64,000 bases of DNA, taken from Lachnospiraceae bacterium (GTDB taxonomy: Bacteria; Bacillota_I; Bacilli_A; RFN20; CAG-449). How positions within the stretch are numbered: the stretch's first letter is position 1; each line of letters opens with the position of its first letter. The notes below the pieces were generated by a model. It made no database searches and was not told where the DNA came from. It worked only from the letters and a program-made list of their open reading frames with translations. The position numbers were made by a program, and so were the translations under genes. Below are positions 5,906 to 62,914 of the stretch, piece by piece. Where the stretch lies: NCBI GenBank assembly GCA_963648895.1, contig CAVJGK010000001.1, positions 26,745 through 90,744 of the forward strand, written 5' to 3'.

Positions 5906-6799
5906 TTAGACCCTTCCCTTAGTAAACCCCGCAGGGCATGTATTAGCTAAAATATTAACTTTACCATCAGTATACCAATGCTTTCCATACGCGGGATTAG
6001 CACTTCCAGCATTCCAAGAAGTCATTTTTGGTTTTTCGTGTAGTTTGTGGTATTCTTCCGTTGACATAGTCAAGCGCTCATAGAAATCACGAGGGGATTT
6101 TACATTATAAGTTGTTTTGCAATATAATCACATATCTTCTAAATCGTAACCATATAATAACTTATATGAAAAGTCTTTAGGAACAGAATTAGCTTTTGCT
6201 TCAACTAAGTTTTTATCTGCGCGTTCTGATTTTAATTCTACAATAGTATTAGTATCAGGAAGATAAAAATCAGGAATATACACATGTGGACTATTTTGCC
6301 ACACATACTCAAAAGTAAATTTACAGCGCTCTATTTTAATGTCATGGTCTAAGCAATACACCAAAAAGATCAATTCATAACTAGATTGAAATGGCAAATC
6401 TTTGTAATAACCGTGATAACTGGAACTGCAATTTGTACTTCCACAAGCGATAGCAATTTTTTGTTTAGTTTCTAGCGAGTGTGGGCGTGAGCTCGAACAA
6501 GAACGAGAGCAATAAATACCGGTTCCAATTTTTTTATAAAATTGTTTACCGCAAGTCTTGCAAAAATGCTGCTCGCTATCCCACTGCGCTTGTTTTGCAT
6601 CTCGTACTGCTTTACACTTCGCTTTATAAGCTGCAGTTGCTAATGCCAGGTTCTGTTTAGCACATCTCATTCGTGCTTCCCATTTTTCATCCCCAAGATT
6701 AACTCGGCAATTAGATTTGTGGGCATTGAAACTCTGAGCATTTGTATAAGTTTTTCCGCATTTACATGTGTAAATGCCTGCGTATTTAGATGTCTTCAT
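5906..6799 (-). CDS. homing-endonuclease-like protein inside the tRNA cluster, read through one in-frame TGA
   Basis: Starts MKTSKYAGIYTCKCGK at 6799, 10 nt after the suppressor tRNA. Zn-finger-like CKCGK..HKSNC, a NUMOD-like SLETKQKIAIA element, and a PD-(D/E)XK-like IPDFYLPDTNTIVELK. TGA at 6128-6130 is followed in frame by 74 more codons ending in the conserved homing-endonuclease C-terminal motif SWNAGS..HWYTDGKVNILANTCPAGFTKGR. The track N-terminus MCSVMVAH... is a translation of the tRNA and is spurious. Confidence 0.55.
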
Positions 6800-6809
6800 A
6801 GTTAAAATC

Positions 6810-6903
6810 TGGCAAGTGTGATAGGACTCGAACCTACTCCCGCGGTTGTGGGCGCCGCTACCCGGTTTTGAAGACCGGTGTGCTACCATTACACTACACA
6901 CTT
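6810..6903 (-). tRNA. suppressor tRNA with anticodon UCA (reads UGA), class II with long variable arm
   Basis: Hand-folded. Acceptor AAGTGTG/CACACTT with G73 and encoded CCA. D arm GTGT-AATGGTA-GCAC. Anticodon stem CCGGT/ACCGG with loop CUUCAAA (U33, anticodon UCA, A37). Roughly 24-nt variable arm with GCGG/CCGC stem. T arm GTAGG-TTCGAGT-CCTAT. Confidence 0.8.
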
Positions 6904-7018
6904 ATTAATGCTGGATTCACTATTTATGATACCAGCTAGACCCAAACAGTTCCTAGCTCTCTCCACAGAACATGACTCCGATCCCGAGACGTCACTGATA
7001 ACCGAGTGCGTACGCTTT

Positions 7019-7093
7019 TGGTTGCGGATGGAAGATTCGAACTTCCGACCTCCAGGTTATGAGCCTAGCGAACTACCTCTGTTCTAATCCGCG
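7019..7093 (-). tRNA. tRNA-Met (anticodon CAT), initiator-like
   Basis: C1:A72 mismatch (CGCGGAT...ATCCGCA-ACCA). Anticodon loop CTCATAA, T loop TTCGAAT. Shows the bacterial initiator features. Confidence 0.8.
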
Positions 7094-7122
7094 ATATTAA
7101 GAAGTTCCTTAACTTCTTCTTT

Positions 7123-7151: not shown

Positions 7152-7257
7152 CTATTTTTTACTTATTTTTTCGTATATTTTTCGTGCTTTACCTTAAGCA
7201 CATAAATATAATAACATGAAAGAATAAAAAAAGAAACTAGTTTTTAACTAATTTCTT

Positions 7258-7613: not shown

Positions 7614-7917
7614 TTACTTCATTAACTCCTCTAATGCCTGTTCCAGCGTATCTGCATAGCAAAATTCAGCACCATTAACCCAGATCGCTATATGCGCAGT
7701 ACCTTGTATAAACCTCTCCTTATTTCGTATACGTATAGTTATAAAAAGAGGAACATCCTCAGTTAGGAGTATTTTTTTTACGATAGTCCAGCGAATGTGA
7801 AAACGCATATTCTAGGGCAAACCCTAGTTCGGACATGGTAGTGATTTCTTTTTCTGCTTGCTTCTTCTTGTCATCAGTAGATAAATTTTCTATATATTTA
7901 AGTTCGGTTTTGGTCAT
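7614..7917 (-). CDS. LGF-motif family paralog interrupted by a +1 frameshift at an A8 tract
   Basis: N-terminal frame MTKTELKYIENL...MSELGFALEYAFSHSLDYRKK runs to the A8 run at 7772-7779. C-terminal frame ILLTEDVPLFITIRIRNKERF...HIAIWVNGAEFCYADTLEQALEELMK follows it. Removing one A restores a full-length family member that aligns to 9859-10161 and 10771-11070. Confidence 0.4.
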
Positions 7918-7919: not shown

Positions 7920-8243
7920 TTATTTAATTAATTCCTCTATTACTTTATCTAATGAGTCTTTTTCTATATGATGTTGACTCCCATTAATAAATCCATGATA
8001 GCGCTCTATGTCATTGGCATAGTCATAGTCGAAGTAGATATTAATTCTAATCCTTTGTAGTTTTTTACCAAAACCCATAATGCATTCGCCAGTGTCTGGG
8101 TCTAGCCCACGCAATCCTGATTCGTCGATACCCAAATTTTCTAGTTCTTCTCCAAACTCAATGAATTCATTTATAATTTCTTTGCTAACACCAGCATTCA
8201 CAAGCGCTTCCATAAAAGATTTTTGAGTTGTGTAATACATCAT
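7920..8243 (-). CDS. small LGF-motif family paralog (subtype B)
   Basis: ENLGIDES motif and C-terminal LDKVIEELIK. Aligns with 8247-8582. Confidence 0.5.
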   Translation of the reverse strand: MMYYTTQKSFMEALVNAGVSKEIINEFIEFGEELENLGIDESGLRGLDPDTGECIMGFGKKLQRIRINIYFDYDYANDIERYHGFINGSQHHIEKDSLDKVIEELIK

Positions 8244-8246
8244 AAT

Positions 8247-8582
8247 CTAAGCTTCTCCTACATCAGTTAACACTTTTATTAATTCGTCAAGGGTGTCTCT
8301 TTCAAATCTCTGATAATGCCCAATAATTCCTACATAATATGTTCTATTATTAATACTTCCGGAATCATAGACACACTGGAGTTTAACTCTGATCCCTTGT
8401 ATATATTTAGAGTACCCTAGAAAAAATTCTCCTGTATGATCGTTAGAGGTTAGGTCAATCAAACCATCCATACCGAGGTATTTTATTTCGCGCTGAAAAT
8501 CAAGAAAATTATTTATAACTTCATCATCCGCGCCTGCACTTACTGCTGCATTTAAAAAAGCTCCTCCATCTTTATAAATCAT
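8247..8582 (-). CDS. small LGF-motif family paralog (subtype B)
   Basis: YLGMDGL motif and C-terminal LDELIKVLTD. Confidence 0.5.
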   Translation of the reverse strand: MIYKDGGAFLNAAVSAGADDEVINNFLDFQREIKYLGMDGLIDLTSNDHTGEFFLGYSKYIQGIRVKLQCVYDSGSINNRTYYVGIIGHYQRFERDTLDELIKVLTDVGEA

Positions 8583-8585
8583 ATT

Positions 8586-8915
8586 TTAATCTCCTGTCTC
8601 ATCAGTTAACACTTTTATTAATTCGTCAAGGGCGCTTCTTTTGAATCGTTGGAAATTTCAAATAATTCTCTCATAATATGTTGTATTGTTTGCAGAATCA
8701 TAGACACACTGGAGTTTAACTCTGATCCCTTGTATATAGTTAGAGAATCTAAGCAAAAATTCACCTGTACGATCGTTAACGGTCAAGCTTATGTAACCCT
8801 CCATGCCAAGGTCCTTCATTTCACCCTCAAAATTGGTGAATTGCTGTATAGTATCTTCATTAGCGCCCGCCTTCCGTGCTGCTTCAAAAAAAGACGCTTT
8901 ATCTCAATATATCAT
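8586..8915 (-). CDS. subtype-B paralog containing two in-frame TGA codons
   Basis: Starts MIY[TGA]DKASFFEAARKAG... Second TGA at 8658-8660. The full-length alignment to 8247-8582 continues through both TGAs to a conserved C-terminus ALDELIKVLTDETGD and a TAA stop. Identical 34-40 nt stretches are shared with the neighbouring copy. Confidence 0.5.
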
Positions 8916-8918
8916 ATT

Positions 8919-9269
8919 TTAACCCCCTAAAACTTGGTTCATCAGTTCATCAAAAGTATTCGTGGTATATCCTTCTATAACTTCATATACTCCATCTTCG
9001 TCCTCTTTATAAATCCCACACATAAATGGAGAGTAATCCTCAGGAATTTCATCCGGCGTAACAAAAATTACTTCTATATAGGTTGATTCTATCTGAGTGC
9101 TAAAAATTGCACAATGACTATTGAACTCATTATAATCGCCCATATCGGGTTCTTGTAGTGATTCTTGAACATTATCGAAACCTAGATTAAGTAAAGTATC
9201 CCGATAGTAAGAATATTCTTTTATTTGATTAGCATCTTTTAACTTTTCACAAAATTCATTAAATTTCAT
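8919..9269 (-). CDS. small LGF-motif family paralog
   Basis: LLNLGFDNV motif and C-terminal FDELMNQVLGG. Confidence 0.5.
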   Translation of the reverse strand: MKFNEFCEKLKDANQIKEYSYYRDTLLNLGFDNVQESLQEPDMGDYNEFNSHCAIFSTQIESTYIEVIFVTPDEIPEDYSPFMCGIYKEDEDGVYEVIEGYTTNTFDELMNQVLGG

Positions 9270-9273
9270 TAGT

Positions 9274-9579
9274 TTACTCCATTAGTTGTCGTAAGAGCGA
9301 GTCTAGATCGTCTGCCATGAATTCAGCAGCATCATGGGATGTAAATGCGACAAATCGTTTCTCACGGGGAATCAGCCTCAACTCGTCGTTTGTATTTATG
9401 TATACTTTTAATGGAGGGTAGTGATAGGAGATCCAGTAACTTTGTGAGTTGCTGATACTAGCATCTGAATATACAAACCCCAGATCATGTAACTGATTGA
9501 TAGCATCTTCTATCTCTTTTCTAGCAGATTCATCTTTAAAAGTTTGCACAAACTTAACTTCTATTTCATTAAATTCCAT
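9274..9579 (-). CDS. small LGF-motif family paralog
   Basis: QLHDLGF motif and C-terminal LDSLLRQLME. Confidence 0.5.
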   Translation of the reverse strand: MEFNEIEVKFVQTFKDESARKEIEDAINQLHDLGFVYSDASISNSQSYWISYHYPPLKVYINTNDELRLIPREKRFVAFTSHDAAEFMADDLDSLLRQLME

Positions 9580-9580
9580 A

Positions 9581-9856
9581 TTATTTCATTACCTCAGCGA
9601 TCATCTCTTCAAAATTTTTGCTTGAGCTAATAAGCACACCCTTAAACGAAGCAGAATACACTATACCAGTTGCAAAGGAGTCAATTTTTATAGCTAACCA
9701 ATTATCACCGAGATCATATAAATAACCTAGATAGTCTGGTCTACCGCATTGAAATTTAACCCCAAATTCATGCAAAGTTTTTATGTTTTGCTTAACTATA
9801 TTTCTTTGTGCTTCATCGGGAAGACGATCTAGAAAATCTAATTCTATTAAGTTCAT
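9581..9856 (-). CDS. small LGF-motif family paralog (subtype A1)
   Basis: TLHEFGV motif and C-terminal NFEEMIAEVMK. Confidence 0.5.
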   Translation of the reverse strand: MNLIELDFLDRLPDEAQRNIVKQNIKTLHEFGVKFQCGRPDYLGYLYDLGDNWLAIKIDSFATGIVYSASFKGVLISSSKNFEEMIAEVMK

Positions 9857-9858
9857 AA

Positions 9859-10161
9859 TTACTTCGTAAGCAACTCCAATGCTTGTTTTAATGTGTTTGT
9901 TTTACAAAAGTCAGTTCCGTTAACCATAACTGCTATATGACTACATTTAGGGTAAGGGTATCTCTCACGATTACCTAAATATATGTCCACCAGAAATGTT
10001 TTATCCCCGCCTCGCACCATTCTATGATATTCTATCCCGTATGGGTCACTATACTTAAGCTTGAATCCAAGTGAGCGCAAAGTAGTTATCTCTTCTTCTG
10101 CCTCTTCGAGCGCTCCAGTATTAGGTAGGTTTTTTGCATATATAAGTTCACGACTATTCAT
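9859..10161 (-). CDS. small LGF-motif family paralog (subtype A2)
   Basis: TLRSLGF motif, then HIAVMVNGTDFCKTNTLKQALELLTK. Confidence 0.5.
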   Translation of the reverse strand: MNSRELIYAKNLPNTGALEEAEEEITTLRSLGFKLKYSDPYGIEYHRMVRGGDKTFLVDIYLGNRERYPYPKCSHIAVMVNGTDFCKTNTLKQALELLTK

Positions 10162-10163
10162 AT

Positions 10164-10469
10164 TTAGTTTATTAGCTCCTCGAGCATTTCTTCAAAATTT
10201 TGCCCTTTATAAATAAGTTTTGCGGTAAAAAAAGCATCAGGTTTTGTATTAAGAAAAGCAGTATATGATATATGGGAATTGTCCAATGCTGCAATGATCA
10301 CCTGTAAATAAGTGTTTTCTACAACGTCAAAGTCATAAAATAGATTACTTTCATCGCCTATCCCAAATGTAAATCCAAATTCAGTCAGTCTTTCTATGTT
10401 AGCTTTAGTTGTATTTCTTAATTCCTCACCACGAAGACTATCTAAAAAATCTAATTCTATTCCATTCAT
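10164..10469 (-). CDS. small LGF-motif family paralog (subtype A1)
   Basis: RLTEFGF motif and C-terminal NFEEMLEELIN. Confidence 0.5.
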   Translation of the reverse strand: MNGIELDFLDSLRGEELRNTTKANIERLTEFGFTFGIGDESNLFYDFDVVENTYLQVIIAALDNSHISYTAFLNTKPDAFFTAKLIYKGQNFEEMLEELIN

Positions 10470-10472
10470 ACT

Positions 10473-10768
10473 TATTTTGTTATCTCCTCAAGTGCCTGTT
10501 CTAAATTATTTGCATCGCAAAATCTTGTTCCATTCACCATGACTTTTATATGAGGACCAAGTGAGTCATACTCACAATTTCTTACGCGTATAACGATAGG
10601 AAATCCTCTTCCATCCACTTGTATCCTTCTGATGTAATCGATTCAGTACGTACCACTGTATCTAAATTGAAACCCTAAATCGTACAAAGTAGTTATTTCT
10701 TCTTCTACCTGTTTTCTCATTTCTTTATTAGAGAAATCTTTTATAAATTTACGTTCATCATTATTCAT
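10473..10768 (-). CDS. subtype-A2 paralog containing one in-frame TGA
   Basis: MNNDERKFIKDFSNKEMRKQVEEEITTLYDLGFQFRYSGTY[TGA]IDYIRRIQVDGRGFPIVIRVRN...VMVNGTRFCDANNLEQALEEITK. Full-length alignment to 9859-10161 passes through the TGA at 10643-10645. Confidence 0.5.
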
Positions 10769-10770
10769 AT

Positions 10771-11070
10771 TTAGTCCACCAGTTCCTCCAGTGCTTGATC
10801 CAACGTGTCAGTGTTACAAACAGCATTTCCATTAATCCAGACTGCTATATGTTGAACGCCAGGTTTATATAGTACAGGATTTCTCAAAAAAATAATTACA
10901 GGTTGTATTCTGTTGTCACCATATACTACCTTGGTATATTTTAATACGTTAGGAGTATAATTTTTAAGTGCAAACCCAAGTTCAGATAAAGTAAGTATTT
11001 CGTCTTCTACCTGTGTCTTTAATTCCTCGCCATCCAGGTTTTTTGTAAATTCTAGTTCATTTTTATTCAT
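10771..11070 (-). CDS. small LGF-motif family paralog (subtype A2)
   Basis: TLSELGF motif, then HIAVWINGNAVCNTDTLDQALEELVD. Confidence 0.5.
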   Translation of the reverse strand: MNKNELEFTKNLDGEELKTQVEDEILTLSELGFALKNYTPNVLKYTKVVYGDNRIQPVIIFLRNPVLYKPGVQHIAVWINGNAVCNTDTLDQALEELVD

Positions 11071-11071
11071 T

Positions 11072-11347
11072 TTAATTCATCAGCTCCTTCAATACTTGCG
11101 CTAAGTCAGCGCCTTCACAAATAGTATTGTCGAAGTGCTGCACTTGAATGCGAGAGTCTTTATTAAAACTATAAATAGCAAGTTCTAGTTGTGCTTTGGG
11201 ATAAGCATAAAATACTACGTAAAAATTTGCACTATAACCAGCATAGTTAAAACCAAGCTCATGCAAAAGGGTAATCTCTTCTTCTGCCTGATGCTTCATT
11301 TCATCAGTGGGCATCTTTTTTATAAACTCTAGCTCATCTTTATTCAT
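11072..11347 (-). CDS. small LGF-motif family paralog (subtype A1)
   Basis: LLHELGF motif and C-terminal LAQVLKELMN. Confidence 0.5.
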   Translation of the reverse strand: MNKDELEFIKKMPTDEMKHQAEEEITLLHELGFNYAGYSANFYVVFYAYPKAQLELAIYSFNKDSRIQVQHFDNTICEGADLAQVLKELMN

Positions 11348-11348
11348 C

Positions 11349-11666
11349 TTAGTTCATTACCTCCTGGAGTACTTGGGTTAAATCATTGCCTTCACCAATG
11401 ATAGTAAAAAAGTGTGCTAGTTCAATGCGAGCTTTTTGACCTGTTACTTTCTCTAAATTATAAATATAAAGTGCTATATTAGGCACTTTTGGATATTTAT
11501 AGTGTATCATGCTAAATAGTATAGTACTGCCACCATACACAAAACCAAGTTCATGCAAAAGGTCCATGTCTTCTATTGTTTGTTCTTGCATTTTTTTCGA
11601 TTGAAATCCCTCTATAAATTTGATTTCATTATAATCATAACTTTTCTTCATACATTTATTATACAA
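11349..11666 (-). CDS. small LGF-motif family paralog (subtype A1)
   Basis: LLHELGF motif and C-terminal LTQVLQEVMN. Confidence 0.5.
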   Translation of the reverse strand: MYNKCMKKSYDYNEIKFIEGFQSKKMQEQTIEDMDLLHELGFVYGGSTILFSMIHYKYPKVPNIALYIYNLEKVTGQKARIELAHFFTIIGEGNDLTQVLQEVMN

Positions 11667-12436: not shown

Positions 12437-13150
12437 TTATACAGGTCCACTGCTATAGGTGAAATATCCAGGTGTGCTTGCTGTATCAATTCTAGCATAA
12501 GTTTTATCAATATAGCTTGAATTGTATGTAGTACCATTCTCTCCAACTAGGGATGTGCAACCATAGAACATATTACTTGACGTTGTTACGTTAGTTGTTA
12601 CAAAGCTTGACTTTACATAGATTGCTGTTAAACTTGAGCAATCACCAAACATATAAAACATATTAGTAACATCGCTAGTATCAAAGGTAGACAAATTCAA
12701 GGTTGTTAATTTTGAGCAATAATCGAACATATAGCTCATGCCAGTAACTTTGCCTGTGCTAGTGCTGGACAGATCTAGTGATGTTAAGCCTGAGCACCTA
12801 TAGAACATACCTTGCATATTAGTAACATTGCTTGTATCAAGGTTGGATAAATTTAATGCTACTAAATTGCTACGGTTATAGAACAAATGACTTAAATTAG
12901 TGGCACAAACCACGCCCGCTTCAAAGTTTAAACTAGTGATTGTTCCGGTTGCTAACTGAACAGAATAATTGTCAGCCCAATTACCGATTTTTGTTATATA
13001 AGTCTTACCTACAATCGTTGCTGAAGCAGGTACTGTATAGGAAGTTGAAGAACCGTTATATGCATGTAACCAAATATATCTATCATCTGTTAATTCATAA
13101 TCCCAATCATTTTGTCATGTTGTAGTTGGGAGTCATGTATCCCAATACAT
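12437..13150 (-). CDS. BspA/DUF285-type leucine-rich-repeat protein with two in-frame TGA codons near the N-terminus
   Basis: ATG at 13150-13148 overlaps the TAA of the upstream gene. Reads MYWDT[TGA]LPTTT[TGA]QNDWDYELTDDRYIWLHAYNGSS... into the track ORF. Repeats of the MFxxCxxLTxLDLSxFDTSxVTNM type. Confidence 0.55.
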
Positions 13151-25905: not shown

Positions 25906-25971
25906 ATTTCTAAAATTAGACCAGCTAACTCTTCATGCTAACCATTTTTTCAAAAACCATTTCATAATTTG

Positions 25972-42403: not shown

Positions 42404-42500
42404 CGTATCATATAACCTATAACATAAAGATTCAGGGACTGATTCTAGTCAGTCCTTCTTAAATCTTTCCTCAAACTTTTTTCCTTGTGATTGTGCCATA

Positions 42501-49020: not shown

Positions 49021-49039
49021 ACATATCCTACTTTCTTCT

Positions 49040-51118: not shown

Positions 51119-51209
51119 TATATGGTGTCCTTCCCAGTTACATTTTAAATTAGCTCATTGTCCCCGTTCTCTTTTAATACTATTTATGTATTCATCATAA
51201 TTCATTAAG

Positions 51210-54872: not shown

Positions 54873-56142
54873 TTACTTGTGGTGCATATTGGTATTCAGC
54901 GGGTTCTTCTGCTTGATATCCTGAATTCAAATCATCTTCATCAGGTATATAATTAAAAATACCTTTATCATAATCAACTTCATAAGAAAGCTCATATTTC
55001 TTTGCACCATCTCTTGCTTTTGCAATATTAAATGTCATAATATTATCTTTCTTACTTATAAATAAAACTTCTGTAGCGTCTTGACCAATTCTATCTGACA
55101 ATGATAAATTTTGAGTTCCTGCCATTCCACCTTCTTCTACTGCAGTTCTATTTTGTTGAGATGCAACAACAATAGGAATATGTTTTTGTACCTGTAAATT
55201 CTTTAACGCTTTACTTATTTCTGCTGCTTGCTCAAATGATTTTGAATAACTTTTAGTACTATCTAATAATGAAATTTGGTCAACAAATAGCATATCTAAC
55301 TCATATTTATCAACAAAAGTTCTTAATGTATCTACTGTTACTTTATCTTCTTTGATCATATCCCGAGTTAAAACAAATAGTTTACCTTTAGAATTTTTTA
55401 AGTTTTCTAAATACATTTTATATTGGTTAGCAATATTCATGCCACCCCGAGAAATGGCAGTGTTAGAAATATGACTAACTAAAGTATCGTAACGACCTGC
55501 AATCTTATTAGCAGTCATTTCACCTTCGTAAAAACCTACTCTTAATCCTTTTTGGACTGCTGCAGTAGCAAATTTAATCATTACTAATGTTTTGCCTATG
55601 CCTGCTCTAGCTGAAATTACAAAATAAGCATTATCCCTGTCAATTCCACCACCAAATGAATTATCTAGCTCTTTAAAACCAGTGCTTACAAAGTGATCTT
55701 CAAAGTTATTACATTTGTCAACATACTCATTATAACGTGAGATATCTTGAAATATATCAACTGCTTCTAAATTCTTTGAAACTGTAATATTAGCGGCAGA
55801 TTTATTTAAAACATTTATTGCTTCATCTGTTTTACCATTAATTAGTAACTCTCTAATTCTATTAAAGGATTTCGCTAACGCATTGGCATTAAATTCTTTA
55901 TAGAGTTCATTTAGCAAATAATCAATAGACTCATCTACTTCGATGACCTCAAATTCAGGAAATACTTTTAAAAATGTTGTTAAATCAGGTAATTGGTTAT
56001 AAGTATTATAATGATTAACTAAAAATTCAAATTCTGCTTTATATTTAGGAAAATAGGCACTTGTTAATCCTTTAGATAATAATGTATTAGTATCTTTTTT
56101 TGCAATGATTCTATTTATTATCTGTAATTGTATTAATGACAT
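54841..56142 (-). CDS. replicative DNA helicase (DnaB-like)
   Basis: Walker A SARAGIGKTLVM, Walker B LFVDQISLL. RecA-like core with an N-terminal DnaB-type domain. Confidence 0.7.
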   Translation of the reverse strand: MSLIQLQIINRIIAKKDTNTLLSKGLTSAYFPKYKAEFEFLVNHYNTYNQLPDLTTFLKVFPEFEVIEVDESIDYLLNELYKEFNANALAKSFNRIRELLINGKTDEAINVLNKSAANITVSKNLEAVDIFQDISRYNEYVDKCNNFEDHFVSTGFKELDNSFGGGIDRDNAYFVISARAGIGKTLVMIKFATAAVQKGLRVGFYEGEMTANKIAGRYDTLVSHISNTAISRGGMNIANQYKMYLENLKNSKGKLFVLTRDMIKEDKVTVDTLRTFVDKYELDMLFVDQISLLDSTKSYSKSFEQAAEISKALKNLQVQKHIPIVVASQQNRTAVEEGGMAGTQNLSLSDRIGQDATEVLFISKKDNIMTFNIAKARDGAKKYELSYEVDYDKGIFNYIPDEDDLNSGYQAEEPAEYQYAPQVSEGSNPYDNY

Positions 56143-56732
56143 CTAGCGTCTCCTCCTTTGATTTCTTTAGAAATAGAATAGTTAATTACTCTAGAAAAAA
56201 CTCTAGGGTCTAGAATAGATTGTAATTGTTTTGGAGCAAGATTTGAAGTATAAATACTGCTCTTCACATTACTTGTTCTTTCATCAATCCAATAGTATAA
56301 GCTATTCATTTCATAGGGAGATATATCCTTAACACCTAAGTCATCAAAAACTACTAAGTTTGCATGTAAAATTTTCTGCTCAGTATCATGCACTTCATCT
56401 AATAAAGAAGGATTAGAAATAGCTAATTTTTTCTTATTTAAAAAATTACTAACATTAATAAATAATCCTGGACATGCGTTAGCAAACATTACTTTACTAT
56501 TTAAATTAATATATTCTAGTAGAATTTTAGTTGCCCAACTAGTTTTACCATTGCCTGTATGTGCTGAATAAATCAACAAGTTATCTCCATTTGTTACAAA
56601 TTGATTTACGTTTAATTTTATTTGATTTAGTTCTGCAAAAGTTTGTTCATCTTCTGAAGAAGGACTTAATCTATTTTCACTTTGATACCTTTTAGGAATA
56701 TTTGAATTACGTAAATATGTGTCAATTAGCAT
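56133..56732 (-). CDS. DnaC/IstB-like helicase-loader ATPase
   Basis: Walker A HTGNGKTSWA, Walker B LVVFDDLG. Confidence 0.5.
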   Translation of the reverse strand: MLIDTYLRNSNIPKRYQSENRLSPSSEDEQTFAELNQIKLNVNQFVTNGDNLLIYSAHTGNGKTSWATKILLEYINLNSKVMFANACPGLFINVSNFLNKKKLAISNPSLLDEVHDTEQKILHANLVVFDDLGVKDISPYEMNSLYYWIDERTSNVKSSIYTSNLAPKQLQSILDPRVFSRVINYSISKEIKGGDARCH

Positions 56733-56934
56733 AATAACCCTCTTTCTTTCACACTAATATATTAGCTTATTTATGTCAGAAAGTAAACTATCTTTTTAAA
56801 TTTTACCTAAGAAACTATCATAAAACTCCATCATAAGTAAATAAAGGTACCAAATTTGAACGTTTACACTTTTTAAGTATATTTATACTCTTTTTACAAA
56901 TTCTCGAATACGGTACCTTAAAACACTTCTGGGA

Positions 56935-57810
56935 CTAATACACTATATCTAATACCTTTGAAGGGTCTCGTTTTTCTGAAACAATACCAAATTCATTACT
57001 ACATCTAGTAACTGTAGTTGTTTTATTTGCTTGTTGTAAATACTCGTCCATCTTATCTCCAAATAAAATAGAGGGTCTTAATAAGCTTACTGTAGTATCT
57101 CCACTTGATAAACGTCTAGGATTAATTCCCCATTCATTATATTTATAATCTATTATCTTAATAAAGTCATTTTCAGTGAATCCTTCTTTTAGTTTAGAAT
57201 AAATCACCTTCTGCAACCCTTTGGAATTTCGGTAGGCAGTTCCGCACACCTCATTGAAGTGCCCTACTACGCGCCCCAGAATTTCCGCATTATTTTTATT
57301 TTGTGCATATCTATTGATATGCACTTTATTATCTAAAGTATCTATTACCTTAGATGTATCAAGCGCATGCGCTTCTATATTATCTTCTTTAGTATTATTA
57401 GATATATATTCTATATTATTGTGTAAACTATCTTTACATGCATGTAAACTTTCTTTACATTGATGTAAAGTATCTTTACGCTCTTGTAAACTTTCTTTAC
57501 ACTCTTCTGTATCATCTTTTTTAGTATTTTTAGTAGGATCATCTGCAAAAACAATATAATATTTGTTATTAGGATATCCTTTTTCTTTTCTAATTAGTCC
57601 CATTTCACAAAGTTGTGCTAAGCAACCACTGACAGATTGTCTAGTACTTTGTGTCCATTCTGCTAAATAAGCGATACTTCCATGATAATTACTTTCTCTA
57701 TCTTGACAAAAACCATAAATAATAGAGTAAATTAAAAGCATATTACCTTTTAGTTGTAATTTGTTTAATACCCAACCAGGTATTACCACATAAGAATCAT
57801 CTCTAATCAT
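56935..57810 (-). CDS. phage replisome organizer / replication initiator with internal iterons
   Basis: N-terminal winged-helix-like LAEWTQSTRQSVSGCLAQLCEMGLIRKE. The central protein repeats KESLH/KDSLH correspond to a DNA iteron array. Confidence 0.5.
   Translation of the reverse strand: MIRDDSYVVIPGWVLNKLQLKGNMLLIYSIIYGFCQDRESNYHGSIAYLAEWTQSTRQSVSGCLAQLCEMGLIRKEKGYPNNKYYIVFADDPTKNTKKDDTEECKESLQERKDTLHQCKESLHACKDSLHNNIEYISNNTKEDNIEAHALDTSKVIDTLDNKVHINRYAQNKNNAEILGRVVGHFNEVCGTAYRNSKGLQKVIYSKLKEGFTENDFIKIIDYKYNEWGINPRRLSSGDTTVSLLRPSILFGDKMDEYLQQANKTTTVTRCSNEFGIVSEKRDPSKVLDIVY
57423..57501. repeat. four 17-bp inverted-repeat iterons TGTAAAnnnnnTTTACA at about 21-bp spacing (candidate origin of replication)
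   Basis: Copies at 57423-57439, 57443-57459, 57464-57480 and 57485-57501, all inside the replisome-organizer gene. Confidence 0.6.
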
Positions 57811-58366
57811 TGTTCATAAACTCCTTTGTTCTTAGATTATATAATAATTTTTTTAATTGTACATTTAAATATTTTGAAGACATATTAGCGATATCATTTA
57901 GTGTTTTAATAAATACTTGTTTATCAGCGCCATAATCATGTTTATAGTACTCATAGTCTCTTAGTGAAACATCTCTAATAAAAGCAATTACCTGCTTCTT
58001 ATCATAGGTTCTACTATTAGAATAACAGATAGCGTCTAGCATTATTCCTTCTAGATAAGATTCTCCAGTAAAATAAGATGAAATAAAATAATACAACTTA
58101 TCTTGTTTTTCAGTTTCGTGGATATCTACTAACCAACCTTCCCCTGCATCATTATAATCATCTCTATATCCATCTAGACTTAAAGTATTAAAATTAGATT
58201 GTCTTCTATAAGCATTATATCTAGATAGCATTACGTTTTTTTGTCTTTTTAGCGCCATGTGCATTGCTTTATCTGGACCCTTAGGATCATTATATAAAGA
58301 ACTTTTAGGATCTTCCCAAACTCTTTTATCCAAGGTATATTTCATAGCGTCCATTACTACGTCCAT
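57803..58366 (-). CDS. hypothetical protein
   Basis: 187 aa ORF. Promoter at 58601-58629. Confidence 0.4.
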   Translation of the reverse strand: MDVVMDAMKYTLDKRVWEDPKSSLYNDPKGPDKAMHMALKRQKNVMLSRYNAYRRQSNFNTLSLDGYRDDYNDAGEGWLVDIHETEKQDKLYYFISSYFTGESYLEGIMLDAICYSNSRTYDKKQVIAFIRDVSLRDYEYYKHDYGADKQVFIKTLNDIANMSSKYLNVQLKKLLYNLRTKEFMNND

Positions 58367-58635
58367 ACATTCTTCAAAACTTACATGCCTATTACATTGG
58401 TTATATATTCTTCCAGAATGTCCCCAGAAACGACATACAATCGCTGCTATTCAGTTCTCATATTCTGCGTCATTTTCATGCTCTATACAATTAAAAAAGA
58501 GTTCACTATTGGAAAAGTCTTTCCAGTGAACTGCATCCGCATATTGTCTATAGTGTTGATAATTTAATTCTAACATAAAATTTCTCCTTTTACATTAGAT
58601 ATTATAGCACAACAAAAAGGGGTTGTAAACTAAAT

Positions 58636-60303
58636 TTACATTACCCCTAATAAATATTTTAATTCTTCTGTTTGGTCTGTATCACCATCTACTAGATAAT
58701 CAGACATACCTTTTTTAGTATCAATTAGGTATTGAACTCTTTCATCTATAGTTCCTTTAGCAATTAGATTATAAATAATAACAGGTTTTTCTGCCGATAT
58801 TCTCCAGATTCTGCTAAAACTTTGTTCATAATCCGACCAAGTCCAAGGGGTATCTAAGAATATTGCGTAAGAAGCAGCAGTTAATGTAAATCCCGTACCT
58901 GTTTTTTGTGCAGTACCTAATAATATAGGATAATTAGGATCATTTTGAAATAGATCCCTATTACGTGCTGCTACCGCATCTGCTAAATCACCTGATGATA
59001 CTAAAGGTTTGTATTCCGCTAACTCTTTTTCTAACTCTCTTAAAGGTTCTTTAAATTGTGAGAAGATGATAACTTTTTCACCTGAGTCTACAATTTCTGC
59101 GACTAAATCTTTTGCTCTTTCTAGCTTACAAGAAATTCCTTGCGTACTTGATAATACAGAAGGACAAGTTGCTGCTTGCCTTAATCTAGTAATTAAACCC
59201 AACATGCTTGTTGTTTTAATATTAACTCTATCTGCTTCTTCAACTACACCATTAGCAATATTTTCATAAAACTTAGCTTGATCATTCTCCATCTCCAGAT
59301 ATTCAGGAATAATTGTTAGCGGTGGAAGTTTAATCATACTCTTAGGTCTTCTTAGCATGAATTCCTGAAGAGTTTCTCTTAAAGTATTCATATTCTTAAA
59401 AGACACTATCTGGTTATGACCAAATTTCTTTTCAAATACACAATAATAATTTTTAAAATTAGTTAGTGTACCTTTCTCTGCCCCTACAAATTTTAAAGGT
59501 AAAAATGAATCTAACGGGTTATTAATTAATAATGTACCAGTTAATCCCCAATGATAAGAACCAACCTTAGCTAATTTTAGTAAGTTCTTACCACGTTGAG
59601 AAGTAACAGATTTACATTTATGAACTTCGTCTACACAAATGATATCAAACTTATTTTGAGATTCTCTTATTGCATCAACAACTAAATCACTTGTTAACAT
59701 TTCTACATTCATGATAACAAAAAATTCTTTAATTGGTTGATATAATTGCTCTGCTCTTTCCGCTATTGAAGCATATTTAACAGTACCTTTTGAATTAACT
59801 TGCTTACCGATAACGACACAATCTAAATCTGAGTGTTTCTTTATTTCATTTTCCCAGTTCGCTTTTAGTGAATTAATTCCGCAAATAATCAAGCAATGTT
59901 CCATATTTAGTTGTGCCTTTAGTTCTTCTGCGGCATAAGTAGTCATTAAAGTCTTTCCAAGCCCCGGTGGATCGCCTAAGATACCACTAGGATGATTTAT
60001 TAACCACGATATTCCATCTTTTTGATAATCGAATGGTTTTGTTTTATACTCTAGAGAACTTTCCAATAGGGTACCTTTATTTGCGTCTAGGAACGACATT
60101 TGAATATCATCTAGATAAGTTAATTTATCTACTAAATTAGCTAATTCTCCAAGAGGTAATTCCCACACTAAGTCTTTCTTATGCCAAATAGCATTTCCAG
60201 TATCTTTAACTGCGGTAACTATTAATGGATTATAATCAAAAGAAACAAATAAAGAAGTTTTTCCTATACTTTTCTTAGCAATATCTTCTTTAATAGTAAT
60301 CAT
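58636..60303 (-). CDS. SNF2/Rad54-family helicase
   Basis: GLGKTLMTT (motif I), VDEVHKCK (DEAH), C-terminal helicase domain with IIFSQF and QKTGTGFTLT. Confidence 0.65.
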   Translation of the reverse strand: MITIKEDIAKKSIGKTSLFVSFDYNPLIVTAVKDTGNAIWHKKDLVWELPLGELANLVDKLTYLDDIQMSFLDANKGTLLESSLEYKTKPFDYQKDGISWLINHPSGILGDPPGLGKTLMTTYAAEELKAQLNMEHCLIICGINSLKANWENEIKKHSDLDCVVIGKQVNSKGTVKYASIAERAEQLYQPIKEFFVIMNVEMLTSDLVVDAIRESQNKFDIICVDEVHKCKSVTSQRGKNLLKLAKVGSYHWGLTGTLLINNPLDSFLPLKFVGAEKGTLTNFKNYYCVFEKKFGHNQIVSFKNMNTLRETLQEFMLRRPKSMIKLPPLTIIPEYLEMENDQAKFYENIANGVVEEADRVNIKTTSMLGLITRLRQAATCPSVLSSTQGISCKLERAKDLVAEIVDSGEKVIIFSQFKEPLRELEKELAEYKPLVSSGDLADAVAARNRDLFQNDPNYPILLGTAQKTGTGFTLTAASYAIFLDTPWTWSDYEQSFSRIWRISAEKPVIIYNLIAKGTIDERVQYLIDTKKGMSDYLVDGDTDQTEELKYLLGVM

Positions 60304-60617
60304 TAGAATAACTCTTCTTCATTTAATTTAATCTTTTCAGGTTTATTTATCTTAGAAACATATTCTTCTTCAAAAGTATCTTTAGCTTCTTCTACTTTAA
60401 ATGATAATTTTGCTTCAATCTTTAATTTAGTTCCACAGTTATCGCAAGTATAGATTTCTTCTAAATCTGGGTCAGTACCATCATAAAACTCAATTTGTCC
60501 ATCAACTGTTTTAAAAATTTCTTTTTGTTTACCAAAAAATGATTCTGGCATAAATATTTCTGATAATAAGTATTGCTGACCGCATTTAGGACAACAAATA
60601 ATTGGTAAATCTTTCAT
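60303..60617 (-). CDS. zinc-ribbon protein
   Basis: CCPKCGQQ...CDNCGTKL in 104 aa. Confidence 0.4.
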   Translation of the reverse strand: MKDLPIICCPKCGQQYLLSEIFMPESFFGKQKEIFKTVDGQIEFYDGTDPDLEEIYTCDNCGTKLKIEAKLSFKVEEAKDTFEEEYVSKINKPEKIKLNEEELF

Positions 60618-60668
60618 TATTAAACTCCTTCATAATTATAATAACATACTCTATTTTATTTGTAAACT

Positions 60669-60696
60669 AAAAAAGAGAACCTTTTACAGTTCTCTT
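60669..60696 (-). terminator. rho-independent terminator overlapping an early promoter
   Basis: AGAGAACC-(7 nt)-GGTTCTCT plus T6 on the coding strand. A TTTACA-N17-TATTAT promoter follows at 60638-60666. Confidence 0.55.
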
Positions 60697-60697
60697 A

Positions 60698-62914
60698 TTA
60701 AATTTCATGCTTCCAACCAGATGATGTTTTTACCCACACATCAGTAACACGCTTCCAACCCGCATCCACTTTAATATATGCTGATTGAATGTCTACCCAT
60801 GCAGGGACATCTGTAGAAGATTTTTGTATTTTTATTTTCTTACCTGTTTTTACCCAAACACCATAATACTTAGGAATATTATCTTTGTTATCCCAAGGCA
60901 AATAGCGCTCTTTATCAGTAATAGAAACAGTATAAGAAGGAATTAAATTATTAGTAACACTTGCTTCAATATCATCTATTGACTCGTATACACCATAAGT
61001 ATTCCAGAAATCATTTGGTAATTGGGAAGTCCAACCTACGAATGAATGATCTTCCCATACTGGCGCATTCATTTTCCAAACAGAACTACTGGTAATCATT
61101 GAAGCGTCATACCACTGTCTGTCTGGATTTTTCCAAACACCATTATAATAAATAAAATCTACATAGTGCGGAACTTCTGACCAAGAAGCAACTAATTCAT
61201 ACTTAGTTTGTCCAGTAGCATAGAATGCATCATCTAAAGTTGCGCCTGGCGCATATGATAATCCATTGATTGTCCATGCTTTAAATAATCTACTATTATC
61301 ATTATAAGTAGGAGTTATAGTAGGCAAAGTTGCTGCAGTGCCATAAGTCTTACTAATAGAATCTATCTTAGTTGGTGTTATTGCACTTGATGTTGCATTT
61401 AAATTAAATGAAACTGTGTATGTAACAGGTGCCCATATCGCAATTAAAGTAGAATCTGCTTTAAACTTAGTCGTTGATGTAACCTTTATTCCATTATATT
61501 GCCATTCTTTAAATGTATAACCTGTTCTTGTAGGTGTTGGTAAGGTTCCTATCGCAGTTTCTGTTATTGAGCTTCCACTTTGTGCCCATTGAGCAATAAA
61601 TGAACCTGGTCTAACTACCCCGCTTCCACCAATTTGAACACCAGTATCTCCCCCAGAAGTGGTGTACCAATTACTTTTTGCAGTATAAGACGTTTTAGAA
61701 TTACAAGAAATAATTGAGTCCGAACAAGCAGAACCTCCATCACTATTATAATGAATAGTAACATTTGTTTTACCTGAAACATCATAAGTTAATTTATATA
61801 AACTTGGTCAAGAGGTGGAATTATTTTCTAGAACATTACTAATTTCCGCCTTAGTTGGTCTTGTTTGATCTGTGCCAGCACTAAATGTCATAATTGGATA
61901 CCATTTAGCATATAAGGTCATATTAGAATCAGTAGAAACAGAAGTAACTTTTGTTCCGTCCTCTTTATACCAACCAGCAAATTTATAACCATCTCTTGTT
62001 GGTGTTGGAAAACCTGAAAAAGATGCTTTAGATGTTACATCAGTAGTAGAACCGCCATTAGACCAGTTTGCCCAAACTTCTTGATTTGCAATACTAACTG
62101 TATCTCCTGCATTCTTACCATTATTCCAACCAGTAAAATTATATACAGTTGTAGTTCTAGTACTCGCTGAACCGGTTAAAGAACTTACCGAACTTCCACC
62201 ATTTGAATTAAAATATAAATAAACAGTTTTAGTTCCAGTAGAGGTCTCATTAATTGAAGAACTTGAGACACCTGGGCAAGTTACAGTTTTTCCGGTCCAT
62301 CCTGTGTAAGTTGATGTTCCAGAAACAGAACTTCTAGACGTTTTAAACGTCATTGTCATTTTATTACTGTCTGTAAAAGGTGATATAAGAGAAACTGTTG
62401 GGGTGCCGATTGTCATTGTGCCACTAGATGATGTGACTCCTTTATACATAGTTACATTGCCTGTCCAACTTTCAGTTGTTTTAGCACCTAGGGTAAATGT
62501 GTAAGAGTAGTAGGCATCACCTAGACCTCATTCTTGTTTTAAATCATTATAGCTACGAATACCAATATACCCGGATGTATAGGCATTACCCCCCTCAGAG
62601 GTTCCTCTTCTAAGTGTTATCGACGGTATTACCATTCGCAAGTCATACGCAAACGAGGCGCTACTATTCTTAGCAAGACATATATAGACGGTTACTGTAG
62701 TATTACCCGATCCATCACTTTGTGGGGAACACCTAACAGCTAATTGTGGTTGAATATAGCTGGGATTTGACACTTTTCCTGTTCCACCATACTCTGAAAA
62801 GGAAATGGTACAGTTATTATAAGCGAGGAACTGATCTCCATTAGTGCATGTTCATGATGTACTGCCACCACCATAGACTGATGAGTAATTGCCATTAGGA
62901 TAATAAACTGCCAT
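60698..62914 (-). CDS. receptor-binding/tail-fibre protein with Flg_new-type (Y.F.GW) repeats, containing three in-frame TGA codons
   Basis: AGGAG RBS 8 nt upstream of ATG at 62914. TGA at 62852-62854, 62528-62530 and 61808-61810 join track ORFs 62528-62773, 61808-62449 and 60698-61327 into one 738-codon frame. Repeats GFPTPTRDGYKFAGWYKEDGTKVTS, GTLPTPTRTGYTFKEWQYNGIKVTS and YNFTGWNNGKNAGDTVS. Confidence 0.55.

Follow-up and report, generated by a model that had tools for sequence, protein, structure and literature searches.

The locus raises the question of what TGA means in a phage in which reading frames continue beyond it. The window (the whole stretch of 64,000 nucleotides that was analysed) is part of a phage genome of ~117 kb with 31% GC, and the host is probably a standard-code bacterium from the Bacillota. 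Here TGA serves as an infrequent Trp codon instead of a stop, and it is in all likelihood read as Trp through the phage's own tRNA. The recoding itself is already known in gut phages (Borges et al., 10.1101/2021.08.26.457843), and an arm of the tRNA is the new part. All genes and RNA features described below lie on the minus strand.

TGA inside genes and at gene ends

The counts of stop and Trp codons are based on a curated map of 101 genes in the window. These genes end in TAA (74) or TAG (27) and never in TGA (P = 2e-5, given 10% expected), and they contain 198 TGG versus 22 in-frame TGA, the latter spread over 15 genes; at most one or two TGAs are possibly true stops (49040-49042, and that of the doubtful 65-codon ORF 7720-7917). 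When minus-strand ORFs are called under table 11 with a minimum length of 60 aa, they end in TAA (72), TAG (26) or TGA (7), and the seven that end in TGA are upstream pieces of interrupted genes. A crude tally of ORF pairs joined by read-through did not distinguish TGA from TAA or TAG, so that the case is carried by homology, stop usage and the tRNA. All 15 TGAs listed in the original prediction read TCA on the plus strand and are in frame as TGA on the coding strand, but the list was incomplete, as seven more sites were found (41161-41163, 41122-41124, 42449-42451, 51155-51157, 58451-58453, 25933-25935 and 49040-49042), and it named 10 genes where it announced 11. The recoded genes have ribosome binding sites (RBS) at their upstream starts, and a usable start after the TGA is absent. 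Apparent upstream TGAs in the ORFs 11723, 45586, 47090 and 2275 were discarded, because they lie 5' of a better Shine-Dalgarno start and thus outside the genes.

The endonuclease-like homing gene 5906-6799 (TGA 6128-6130, codon 224) matches PHROG endonuclease families, and in the NUMOD3 homing-endonuclease-like gene 20309-20893 (20498-20500, codon 132) the Pfam NUMOD3 match at 111-147 spans the TGA. The C-terminal homing-endonuclease motif W(F/Y)xxG..N......CP.GF..GR, which had been claimed to follow the TGA in two genes, is indeed found downstream of it in these two. Pfam GIY-YIG covers both TGAs (41161-41163 and 41122-41124) of the GIY-YIG homing endonuclease with HTH repeats, 40117-41259. 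The HNH/NUMOD3 homing endonuclease 49028-50089, recognised by Pfam and PHROG, has three (50036-50038, 49298-49300 and 49040-49042), the last of which is followed four codons later by TAG and could be a real stop; the gene sits between two DNA polymerase segments. In the HNH homing endonuclease 50483-51205 (51155-51157, codon 17) a GGAGG RBS precedes the ATG, the phrog_655 match begins at residue 1, and a later start would sever the HNH motif. The endonuclease-like gene 20894-22048 (21371-21373, codon 226) gives single-stretch matches across the TGA in more than 140 homologues.

The small paralogue 8586-8915 has TGAs at codons 4 (8904-8906) and 86 (8658-8660) and an RBS before its ATG; it aligns end to end with the neighbouring paralogue 8247-8582, the residues opposite the TGAs being variable (K, G, N), and the paralogue alignment of 10472-10768 likewise crosses its TGA (10643-10645, codon 42). 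The DUF285/BspA-type LRR protein 12437-13150 (Pfam DUF285, E = 6.6e-23) has TGAs at codons 6 and 12 (13133-13135 and 13115-13117), with a GGAGG RBS at its ATG and 67 codons past the TGAs without a start codon. The fibre-repeat protein 13150-14154 (14101-14103, codon 18) is supported by Pfam Phage_head_fibr, its RBS and start, and PHROG matches, and the tail-fibre-like protein with Pfam Flg_new repeats, 60698-62914, has TGAs at codons 21, 129 and 369 (62852-62854, 62528-62530 and 61808-61810). The remaining four genes encode a Holliday-junction resolvase (42014-42499; 42449-42451, codon 17; phrog_843), a conserved protein of no assigned function in the replication module (57803-58576; 58451-58453, codon 42) and two further proteins of no assigned function, 25432-25965 (25933-25935, codon 11; RBS at the upstream ATG, downstream TTG without RBS) and 29333-30157 (30095-30097, codon 21). 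The support for the last two sites consists of ORF continuity and start-site evidence, and 30095-30097, with ORF continuity, is the weakest site of all. The public annotation splits or truncates recoded genes: P0032 and P0034 are halves of 20894-22048, the resolvase is recorded as a truncated 129-aa P0001, and P0304 is a further case.

That these genes are pseudogenes or assembly errors whose products end at the TGA is hardly credible, for even though homing endonuclease genes often decay and the public annotation contains these split or truncated ORFs, the interruptions are exclusively TGA, never TAA or TAG, and fall on conserved Trp columns, frameshifts were not seen, the same TGA occurs in an independent assembly, a matching tRNA is present and gene ends are free of TGA.

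The inserted residue and the suppressor tRNA

By homology, the residue inserted at TGA is tryptophan. The column of the TGA holds W in 142 of 148 homologues of gene 20894-22048, in 26 of 27 homologues of the resolvase, and in all five full-length homologues of the fibre protein at codon 369; at codon 42 of 57803-58576 it is W in the four nearest homologues and F or Y in the others. When 10 residues were tried at the TGA of 20309-20893, the NUMOD3 profile scored best with W (53.2 bits; Y 51.7, G 44.7), and gene 40117-41259 reached the curated GIY-YIG cut-off with no residue other than W, L or F at its TGAs, W being best (24.3 bits). Tryptophan is confirmable at informative columns only, and fibre codons 21 and 129, as well as the small paralogues, have their TGAs in variable columns. 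The original prediction had seen G, S, V, N or K opposite the TGAs in paralogues and had left the amino acid open; the residues are there, but they belong to such variable columns and do not leave the amino acid open. Phage tRNAs with anticodon UCA tested in E. coli extract inserted Trp at UGA in 13 of 13 cases (PMC12636597).

The suppressor tRNA that the phage was predicted to supply is found at 6810-6903, in the phage tRNA cluster. It is 94 nt long, has an encoded CCA end and the anticodon UCA (6869-6871), and folds into a cloverleaf whose acceptor, D and T stems measure 7, 4 and 5 bp, with A1-U72 and G73. It scores 59.4 bits with the Rfam tRNA model, above the other models of the clan, and 86.1 bits over its full length with a model of 22 related phage tRNAs from which it was itself left out; without its variable arm, its nearest neighbour among 369 tRNAs is tRNA-Trp(CCA). 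The anticodon arm, CCGGU-CUUCAAA-ACCGG (6862-6878), matches that of E. coli tRNA-Trp except for C34U. According to a review, the Trp identity elements in bacteria are G73, A1-U72, G5-C68 and the anticodon CCA (PMC9976931), every one of which is present here except C34.

ARAGORN labels this tRNA 'SeC', which is due to its anticodon and length alone, as it is Trp-like and not a tRNA-Sec: the bacterial tRNA-Sec has an 8/5 acceptor/T arrangement and a 6-bp D stem, unlike the 7/5 arrangement and 4-bp D stem seen here. A reading of TGA as selenocysteine, or else as serine or glycine (code 25), is highly improbable. SerRS does recognise a long variable arm with G73 (Mukai et al., PMC5389517), and G stands opposite two TGAs in paralogues, but informative sites align with W and not with C, S or G, the tRNA resembles tRNA-Trp in its acceptor and D arms, the general tRNA model beats the rest of the Rfam clan, and phage tRNAs(UCA) insert Trp in experiments.

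Distribution of TGA and a heavily recoded relative

The TGAs are unevenly distributed. Of the 22, 15 fall in genes for homing endonucleases and fibres (odds ratio 5.9, p = 1.7e-4), with TGA making up 9 of 32 Trp codons in the homing endonuclease genes, and replication and nucleotide-metabolism genes have none among ~100 Trp codons. This bears out the predicted recoding of a gene subset, but its confinement to accessory, mobile and late-type genes was too strong a claim, because the resolvase and the replication-module gene 57803-58576 carry TGA. The first 45 codons contain 13-14 of the 22 TGAs versus 12 of the 67 TGGs of the same genes (p = 1e-4, post hoc), and the base following the codon (+4) is A or C in 17 of 22 TGAs versus 36 of 118 TGGs (p = 6e-5, post hoc) and U in a single TGA. 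In E. coli, A or C at +4 is a weak context for termination by RF2, and U is the strongest, so that the bias would fit competition between the tRNA and RF2.

The tRNA would be transcribed from the phage tRNA cluster and charged with Trp by the host TrpRS, and at UGA the charged tRNA would outcompete RF2. Genes required before the tRNA builds up (replication, nucleotide metabolism) would then remain free of TGA, and it would be tolerated or exploited in the genes of homing endonucleases and fibres, in that of the resolvase and in a few more; with TGA inside these genes, their full-length products could be made only with the tRNA, a dependence like that in the late-gene gating model of Borges et al.

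A close, syntenic relative, L190, has structural genes that are far more heavily recoded, with 29 TGAs that account for roughly one in two of their Trp codons, and no TGA in the helicase and neighbouring genes. In the fibre orthologue, 13 of the 15 TGAs of L190 align with TGG in the window, and the window's TGA at codon 369 aligns with TGG in L190. The L190 orthologue of 57803-58576 (68% identity) has TGA at the same codon, 42, in an independent assembly from a different sequencing run. Neither the +4 bias nor the N-terminal bias of TGA is present in L190. As L190 is so much more recoded, the phage of the window stands for a sparse form of this process, probably an early one.

TGA-to-Trp recoded phages with suppressor tRNAs are reportedly also treated by Ivanova et al. 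2014. Like the Agate/Jade-type gut phages with code 4 (Borges et al., 10.1101/2021.08.26.457843), the window phage has low GC, has dropped TGA from its stops, reads in-frame TGA as Trp with its own tRNA(UCA), keeps the standard code in replication genes and has closely related standard and recoded forms. Unlike in those phages, its recoding is sparse (10% of Trp codons in the window), its TGAs concentrate in homing endonucleases and in the first 45 codons, and TrpRS and RF1 were not found by a motif search within the window, although the ~53 kb of genome outside it could encode either.

A host that itself uses code 4, Mollicutes-like and without RF2, with the phage following suit and its tRNA merely supplementing the host tRNA-Trp(UCA), is very unlikely, as the original prediction also held. 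TGA is never a stop here, GC is low and one recoded gene has DUF285, a family named after Mycoplasma, but TGG outnumbers TGA ~9:1 at 31% GC with TGA-free replication genes, such a host would not impose the mosaic of structural genes versus helicase in L190, and the avoidance of U at +4 (1/22) suggests that RF2 is present. Besides, the nearest annotated phages, with a helicase identity of only ~35%, have standard-code Bacillota as hosts (Clostridium, Bacillus and Streptococcus). The tRNA-Trp(UCA) of Mollicutes and mitochondria reads UGA with the same U34-C35-A36, but it is 75 nt long without an extra arm, and in those systems RF2 is missing and TGA occurs in all genes, unlike the pattern in the window.

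Possible, but rather unlikely, is that TGA means Trp with its distribution having no regulatory role, having arisen by import with mobile genes out of relatives with heavier recoding and by near-neutral drift from TGG to TGA in genes of low or late expression. In favour of this, the homing endonuclease genes (9 TGAs among 32 Trp codons) move horizontally, one relative is indeed heavily recoded, mutational pressure towards AT promotes G-to-A changes, and a 'detoxification' of TGA after acquisition of the tRNA has been proposed (Borges et al., 10.1101/2021.08.26.457843). Drift alone, however, would not be expected to yield the N-terminal clustering, the +4 bias or, in 57803-58576, a codon-42 TGA conserved in two phages at 68% identity in that protein.

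A variable arm with a CCA loop

The variable arm of the suppressor tRNA forms a hairpin, GCGG(C)-GCCCACA-(A)CCGC (6842-6858), with CCA at the loop centre (6849-6851). This CCA aligns with an invariant CCA in the variable-arm loop of related tRNAs, the nearest arm being that of L229 (GCGGU-CUCCAAA-GCCGC). The loop is N-U-CCA-A-N in all 32 other long Trp-like (A1-type) UCA tRNAs, 26 viral and six from metagenomes, which were recovered with seeds that left the variable arm unconstrained, and the CCA loop is absent from all ~30 Sec-type UCA tRNAs. The stem co-varies, with compensatory changes in three of four pairs and 92% of cells paired, and the CCA is invariant. One tRNA with the same CCA arm has the anticodon CUA and adjoins a tRNA-Trp(CCA). 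At loci with CCA-arm tRNAs, ORF coverage rises under code 4 and not under code 15. The loop of the window tRNA, GCCCACA with a C·A mismatch as its closing pair, deviates from the consensus CUCCAAA and may be decaying.

In its anticodon-loop geometry, the CCA of the arm may stand in for the Trp anticodon C34-C35-A36 that TrpRS normally requires, and this would free the true anticodon to be UCA. I put the chances at about even that the arm is such a decoy anticodon, recruiting the host TrpRS. No description of a CCA variable arm was found in the literature searched, and an extra hairpin that bears CCA and copies the normal Trp anticodon loop is apparently undescribed. The variable arm exits the tRNA core elsewhere than the anticodon arm, and TrpRS may be unable to reach the candidate decoy arm. 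Short UCA tRNAs without the CCA arm also occur in phages.

A serious contender, if short of an even chance, is that the arm is no TrpRS determinant but what is left of an anticodon arm after duplication, or else that it serves another partner, for instance by binding a modification enzyme, by diverting an anticodon nuclease or by signalling processing. Its likeness to a second copy of the tRNA-Trp anticodon arm (GGGU-CUCCAAA-ACCC next to GCGGU-CUUCAAA-ACCGU), the existence of the arm-less tRNAs and the fact that E. coli TrpRS can charge tRNAs with UCA anticodons speak for this. A relic, however, would not hold six loop positions invariant with a co-varying stem across at least 22 diverged sequences, and the diverged loop of the window retains CCA, as does the arm paired with another anticodon, CUA.

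The Jade-phage TrpRS:tRNA-Trp(UCA) pairs AP1 and HF2 (PMC12636597) share UCA, G73 and Trp at UGA with the window tRNA, but, compared by description only, those phages bring their own TrpRS, and the window phage shows none within the window and has the CCA-loop arm instead. Class II tRNAs (Ser, Leu, bacterial Tyr, Sec) and allo-tRNAs (Mukai et al., PMC5389517) have a long paired variable arm and 90-100 nt, as here, but the window tRNA differs in its Trp-type acceptor stem, D arm and discriminator base, in its 7/5 rather than 8/4 or 9/3 arrangement and in belonging to a type with a conserved, anticodon-like sequence in the loop of the variable arm; for tRNA-Ser, what counts is how large this arm is and not its sequence (PMC9976931).

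Mimicry of an anticodon arm that binds a synthetase is known from the E. coli thrS operator. In this operator and in the yeast HisRS mRNA mimic (PMC6542539), a hairpin with the cognate anticodon is proposed to recruit the synthetase, much as the decoy arm would; those mimics lie in mRNA and regulate translation, whereas the putative mimic in the window is part of a tRNA and would govern how that tRNA is charged.

Reading of the in-frame TGA codons

The original prediction held that TGA triplets occur systematically inside reading frames of this phage, and left the inserted amino acid open. Every triplet that it listed is TGA on the coding strand, and the frames do continue past these sites, as domain, homologue and paralogue matches run across them: the Pfam domains NUMOD3 and GIY-YIG extend across TGA positions, more than 140 homologues of the gene at 20894-22048 align in one stretch through its TGA, full-length homologues were found for the fibre (60698-62914), and alignments of the small paralogues pass through TGA positions. 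The observation is thus confirmed, and it extends beyond the sites listed. Two additional TGAs are located in the GIY-YIG endonuclease gene 40117-41259, and one each in the Holliday-junction resolvase gene (42014-42499), the HNH endonuclease gene 50483-51205, the gene 57803-58576, which encodes a conserved protein, and the gene 25432-25965, while the HNH gene at 49028-50089 has a third one near its end. The upstream TGAs of the ORFs 11723, 45586, 47090 and 2275 were rejected, as they lie outside genes, 5' of a better start that bears a ribosome-binding site.

In a curated map of 101 genes with TGA as a sense codon, trimmed of upstream extensions wherever a ribosome-binding site marks a better start further downstream, 74 genes end in TAA, 27 in TAG and none in TGA, with at most one or two ambiguous cases within the window. 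A genome in the standard code would be very unlikely to lack TGA stops altogether in 101 genes (p = 2e-5 if 10% were expected). Reading through stops to merge pairs of ORFs does not set TGA apart (8 pairs, against 6 for TAG and 12 for TAA); this statistic is uninformative because adjacent genes in the same frame merge too, and the case for continuity consequently stands on homology and stop usage.

At the informative sites the residue opposite the TGA is tryptophan, which resolves the question that had been left open, and lends support to an amino acid with which the sequence contexts had been judged compatible. Codon 17 of the resolvase is opposite W in 26 of 27 homologues, codon 226 of the gene at 20894-22048 in 142 of 148, and codon 369 of the fibre in all five full-length homologues; at codon 42 of the gene at 57803-58576, the four nearest homologues have W and the others F or Y. 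When ten residues were substituted at the TGA positions and scored with Pfam, tryptophan scored best for both NUMOD3 (53.2 bits vs. 44.7 for glycine) and GIY-YIG (24.3 vs. 20.1 for glycine). The strongest evidence for tryptophan comes from L190, a 21-kb contig from a different run of the same project (Logan SRR13434671) that is syntenic with positions 56133-63741. The orthologue of the fibre there, with 51% identity, contains 15 in-frame TGA and 14 TGG codons; 13 of these 15 TGAs are located opposite a TGG in the window, and the window's TGA at codon 369 is opposite a TGG in L190. TGA and TGG have thus been swapped at 14 codons, and are therefore interchangeable as tryptophan codons in this lineage. 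At the level of sequence comparison, these data show that TGA encodes tryptophan and has no stop function in the phage.

Other readings of the TGA codons do less well. The 22 in-frame TGAs of the window, spread over 15 genes, stand against 198 TGG codons at tryptophan positions, and the core genes are without TGA, which argues against a code 4 genome of the Mollicutes type. The variable residues G, S, V, N and K that had been noted opposite the TGAs do occur, but in poorly conserved columns (small paralogues and the N-terminus of the fibre). Code 25, in which TGA is read as glycine (phages of Absconditabacteria and Gracilibacteria), agrees neither with the W at the informative sites, nor with the profile test, where glycine was among the lowest-scoring substitutions, nor with the Trp-like tRNA. 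Selenocysteine was rejected because the TGAs align with Trp instead of Cys or Sec, and insertion of serine, a code-4 host and a pseudogene reading of the interrupted genes were discarded as well.

Distribution of TGA among and within genes

Fibre and homing-endonuclease genes are enriched in TGA (odds ratio 5.9, p = 1.7e-4) and the replication genes have none, in a comparison of gene classes that covers the window, the lysis genes lying outside it. The proposed restriction of recoding to accessory, mobile and late-type genes therefore holds as an enrichment combined with avoidance in replication genes, but not as a strict rule, since the resolvase and the protein at 57803-58576 are exceptions. 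A comparable division is observed in L190, where the structural genes have 29 TGAs, about half of their tryptophan codons, and the helicase module, with a helicase 76% identical to that of the window, has none. With sparse recoding in the window phage and heavy recoding in L190, the two make a natural pair for comparison.

Within genes, 13 or 14 of the 22 TGAs are located in the first 45 codons, compared to 12 of 67 TGG codons of the same genes (p = 1e-4, post hoc). Of the 22 TGAs, 17 are followed by A or C and a single one by U, while A or C follows 36 of 118 TGG codons (p = 6e-5, post hoc). In Escherichia coli, RF2 termination is poorest before C and strongest before U. Codon 42 of the gene at 57803-58576 is a TGA in L190 too. 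The early-codon bias, the bias at the +4 position and this conserved TGA fit selection rather than drift, in what is a post hoc interpretation. Both biases are absent from the heavily recoded L190, and may be specific to phages with weak or recent suppression.

A suppressor tRNA with a CCA-bearing variable arm

The phage was expected to supply its own suppressor tRNA, and a tRNA with a UCA anticodon is indeed present at 6810-6903(-). Its stems measure 7 bp (acceptor), 4 bp (D, with G18 G19) and 5 bp (T); it further has A1-U72 and G73, and its CCA end is encoded. In tRNA-Sec the acceptor and T stems are arranged 8/5 and the D stem has 6 bp, so that the 7/5 arrangement and 4-bp D stem of the window tRNA exclude this identity, and the Sec-type tRNAs with which it was compared look different. 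The bacterial tRNA-Trp identity set consists of G73, A1-U72, G5-C68, U31-A39 and the anticodon C34-C35-A36 (PMC9976931). The window tRNA has the first four of these elements; its anticodon is U34-C35-A36, so C34 is absent, and a CCA is found in the loop of the variable arm instead. The pairs G2-C71 and G4-C69 of the Bacillus subtilis set are A2-U71 and U4-A69 here. With the variable arm left out, its nearest neighbours among 369 tRNAs from the comparison loci are tRNA-Trp(CCA) and short UCA tRNAs. Phage tRNA(UCA) tested experimentally inserted Trp at UGA in 13 of 13 (PMC12636597). The exact 20-mer and 40-mer of the window tRNA are absent from viral_contigs and genome_contigs.

The tRNA owes its length of 94 nt to its variable region, which forms a hairpin of 17 nt, GCGG(C)-GCCCACA-(A)CCGC. 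In a scan of viral contigs whose only seed was the UCA anticodon arm (15 bases), I found 26 other distinct long (93-100 nt) UCA tRNAs with A1-U72 (G1·U72 in two) and G73, and all of them have a variable-arm hairpin with a shared motif in its loop: UCCAA (as in CUCCAAA, GUCCAAA or UUCCAAC), with UCCACA instead in one. In most of the 26 the loop has 7 nt with the CCA in its centre, which is both the sequence and the register of the tRNA-Trp anticodon loop, while nine distinct Sec-type tRNAs obtained with the same seed have unrelated variable-arm loops. A second scan, of metagenome contigs with a 19-mer of the anticodon arm, gave the loop in 6 of 6 long A1-type tRNAs and in none of about 30 Sec-type tRNAs. 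The scan of genome_contigs forced TCCAA and is thus biased; it also returned many true tRNA-Sec genes and chance matches in coding sequence, and was used only to list six MAG contigs with tRNAs of the family. A MAFFT alignment shows no variation in the six loop bases UCCAAA, and the stem of the variable arm shows compensatory changes in three of its four pairs, with 92% of cells paired; slid-register and shuffle controls of the whole structure are far lower.

This family of long, Trp-like tRNAs is defined by A1 (or G1)-U72, G73, the anticodon UCA and a hairpin in the variable arm whose loop has CCA in its middle. A covariance model was derived from 22 of them, with the window tRNA left out; against it the window tRNA scores 86.1 bits across its whole length (E = 1.7e-21), compared to 41 bits for the next tRNA of the window and 52-55 bits for ordinary phage tRNA-Trp(CCA). 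The window tRNA belongs to this family, and its CCA aligns with the CCA that is invariant there. Its loop deviates from the consensus, in which N-U-C-C-A-A-N has a closing pair of the Watson-Crick or G·U type; the window has G-C-C-C-A-C-A closed by C·A, so that the CCA is kept and C replaces both U33 and A37. A comparable loop, CUCCACA, is found at locus L111, and the nearest relative, at locus L229, is GCGGU-CUCCAAA-GCCGC. The loci with long CCA-arm tRNAs have a low GC content, and their ORF coverage rises when TGA is taken as sense (e.g. from 0.25 to 0.73 and from 0.36 to 0.72). There is no such gain with TAG as sense, nor with TGA as sense at the loci of Sec-type tRNAs. At six IMG/VR loci of recoded phages (L052, L031, L045, L039, L092 and L096), the long UCA tRNA is located 10-200 nt from an ordinary tRNA-Trp(CCA), which fits an origin of the two-arm tRNA by duplication of a Trp tRNA gene.

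A host that would use the standard code and RF2 is suggested by the mosaic use of TGA, by the bias at the +4 position and by the hosts of the nearest phages, which are Bacillota. Host TrpRS would then charge the phage UCA tRNA, the charged tRNA would compete with RF2, and genes with TGA would yield full-length protein only after the tRNA had become abundant; such gating has already been proposed for phages of this kind (Borges et al., 10.1101/2021.08.26.457843). A motif search of the window and the fetched loci for TrpRS (HIGH/KMSKS) and class-I release factors (GGQ) found none, which is a weak negative. As the anticodon bases are major identity elements for bacterial TrpRS (PMC9976931), the change of C34 to U should weaken charging. 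From the sequence conservation of the second arm, I hypothesize that it supplies the missing determinant by presenting CCA. It is conceivable, though I would put it somewhat short of probable, that the UGA suppressor represents a widespread and apparently undescribed class with two anticodon arms, in which the UCA (once CUA) arm decodes the stop and the variable arm keeps N-U-CCA-A-N as the site for host TrpRS. If so, amino-acid identity would be uncoupled from decoding, and reassignment of a stop to Trp in standard-code hosts could be explained without a phage synthetase. In the literature searched, no CCA-bearing variable arm was found in phage suppressor tRNAs, although absence there is no proof of novelty.

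If the second arm replaces the anticodon determinant, tRNAs with other anticodons could use it as well. One such tRNA came out of a targeted scan, at positions 7800-7892 of L245 (IMG/VR 3300028805_000058, 146 kb), which has the anticodon CUA, G1·U72, G73 and the variable-arm loop GUCCAAA, and directly follows an ordinary tRNA-Trp(CCA) at 7720-7791. Its two-arm design is that of the UCA family, but with an amber anticodon. Trp-isotype tRNA-Sup(CUA) of phages are mentioned in PMC10879173. Further, the homologue of the resolvase (42014-42499) at positions 1444-1923 of L241 (Logan SRR9184944) has five in-frame TAGs and ends in TGA. Three of these TAGs are located on near-invariant Trp columns, and a fourth where the nearest relatives have Trp. 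The public pipeline rendered them as Gln, but this looks like TAG-to-Trp rather than TAG-to-Gln.

Relation to known recoding and phage setting

The recoding itself is a known phenomenon. The code-4 phages described by Borges and co-workers (10.1101/2021.08.26.457843) agree with the window in having in-frame TGA codons, TGA as tryptophan, no TGA terminators, their own UCA suppressor tRNA and avoidance of TGA in replication genes; the recoding matches in all features that were compared. The interpretation offered in the original prediction is supported, with tryptophan as the amino acid. In the current evolutionary model TGA stops are lost first, a suppressor tRNA is acquired, and in-frame TGAs then spread from mobile and structural genes; the window is a clean example of the sparse stage which this model predicts, with a heavily recoded sister available. 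Borges and co-workers left open how hosts charge phage suppressor tRNAs, and suspected non-canonical tRNA structures. The larger point is the tRNA, as a variable arm with a conserved copy of the anticodon loop of tRNA-Trp offers a concrete and directly testable answer to the charging question. If right, it would be a natural route to an altered anticodon without loss of tRNA identity, which is relevant to the evolution of the genetic code, and a possible aid in engineering suppressor tRNAs where the synthetase reads the anticodon. This architecture, apparently undescribed, is the new element, and is worth experimental follow-up.

The recoding matters mainly for annotation. NCBI also has this genome, on a contig of 116,943 bp, and there the resolvase (P0001), the protein at 57803-58576 (P0304) and the gene at 20894-22048 (P0032 and P0034) are truncated or split. 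With three recoded genes affected, annotation was evidently done with table 11, and this copy needs re-annotation with table 4.

The long ORFs of the window are all on the minus strand, at a GC content of about 31%, and encode an anaerobic ribonucleotide reductase, SbcCD, a clamp and clamp loader, a primase and helicases of the DnaB and SNF2 types. Megablast of 20 kb of the window against an annotated phage collection gave no match, and sequence searches of the PDB with the GIY-YIG and resolvase proteins gave no useful ones; the most similar helicases (about 35% identity) belong to phages of Clostridium, Bacillus and Streptococcus. DNA polymerase I occupies two ORFs, 51210-52916(-) and 48037-49020(-), with three ORFs in between, two of which are HNH homing endonucleases with TGA; no Rfam match to a group I intron was found in this region (48037-52916(-)) at the gathering threshold. 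The UCA tRNA is part of a cluster (Ser, Ile, Pro, Thr, UCA and Met) at 5267-7093, directly beside a full-length ROOL RNA at 4622-5223(-) (Rfam RF03087, 256 bits vs. a gathering score of 99). At 7920-11666(-), twelve genes of about 100 codons each stand in tandem; they form two related groups of paralogues with a common C-terminal motif, ..L..(A/V/M)(L/I)(E/K)E(L/V).., and two of the twelve contain TGA.
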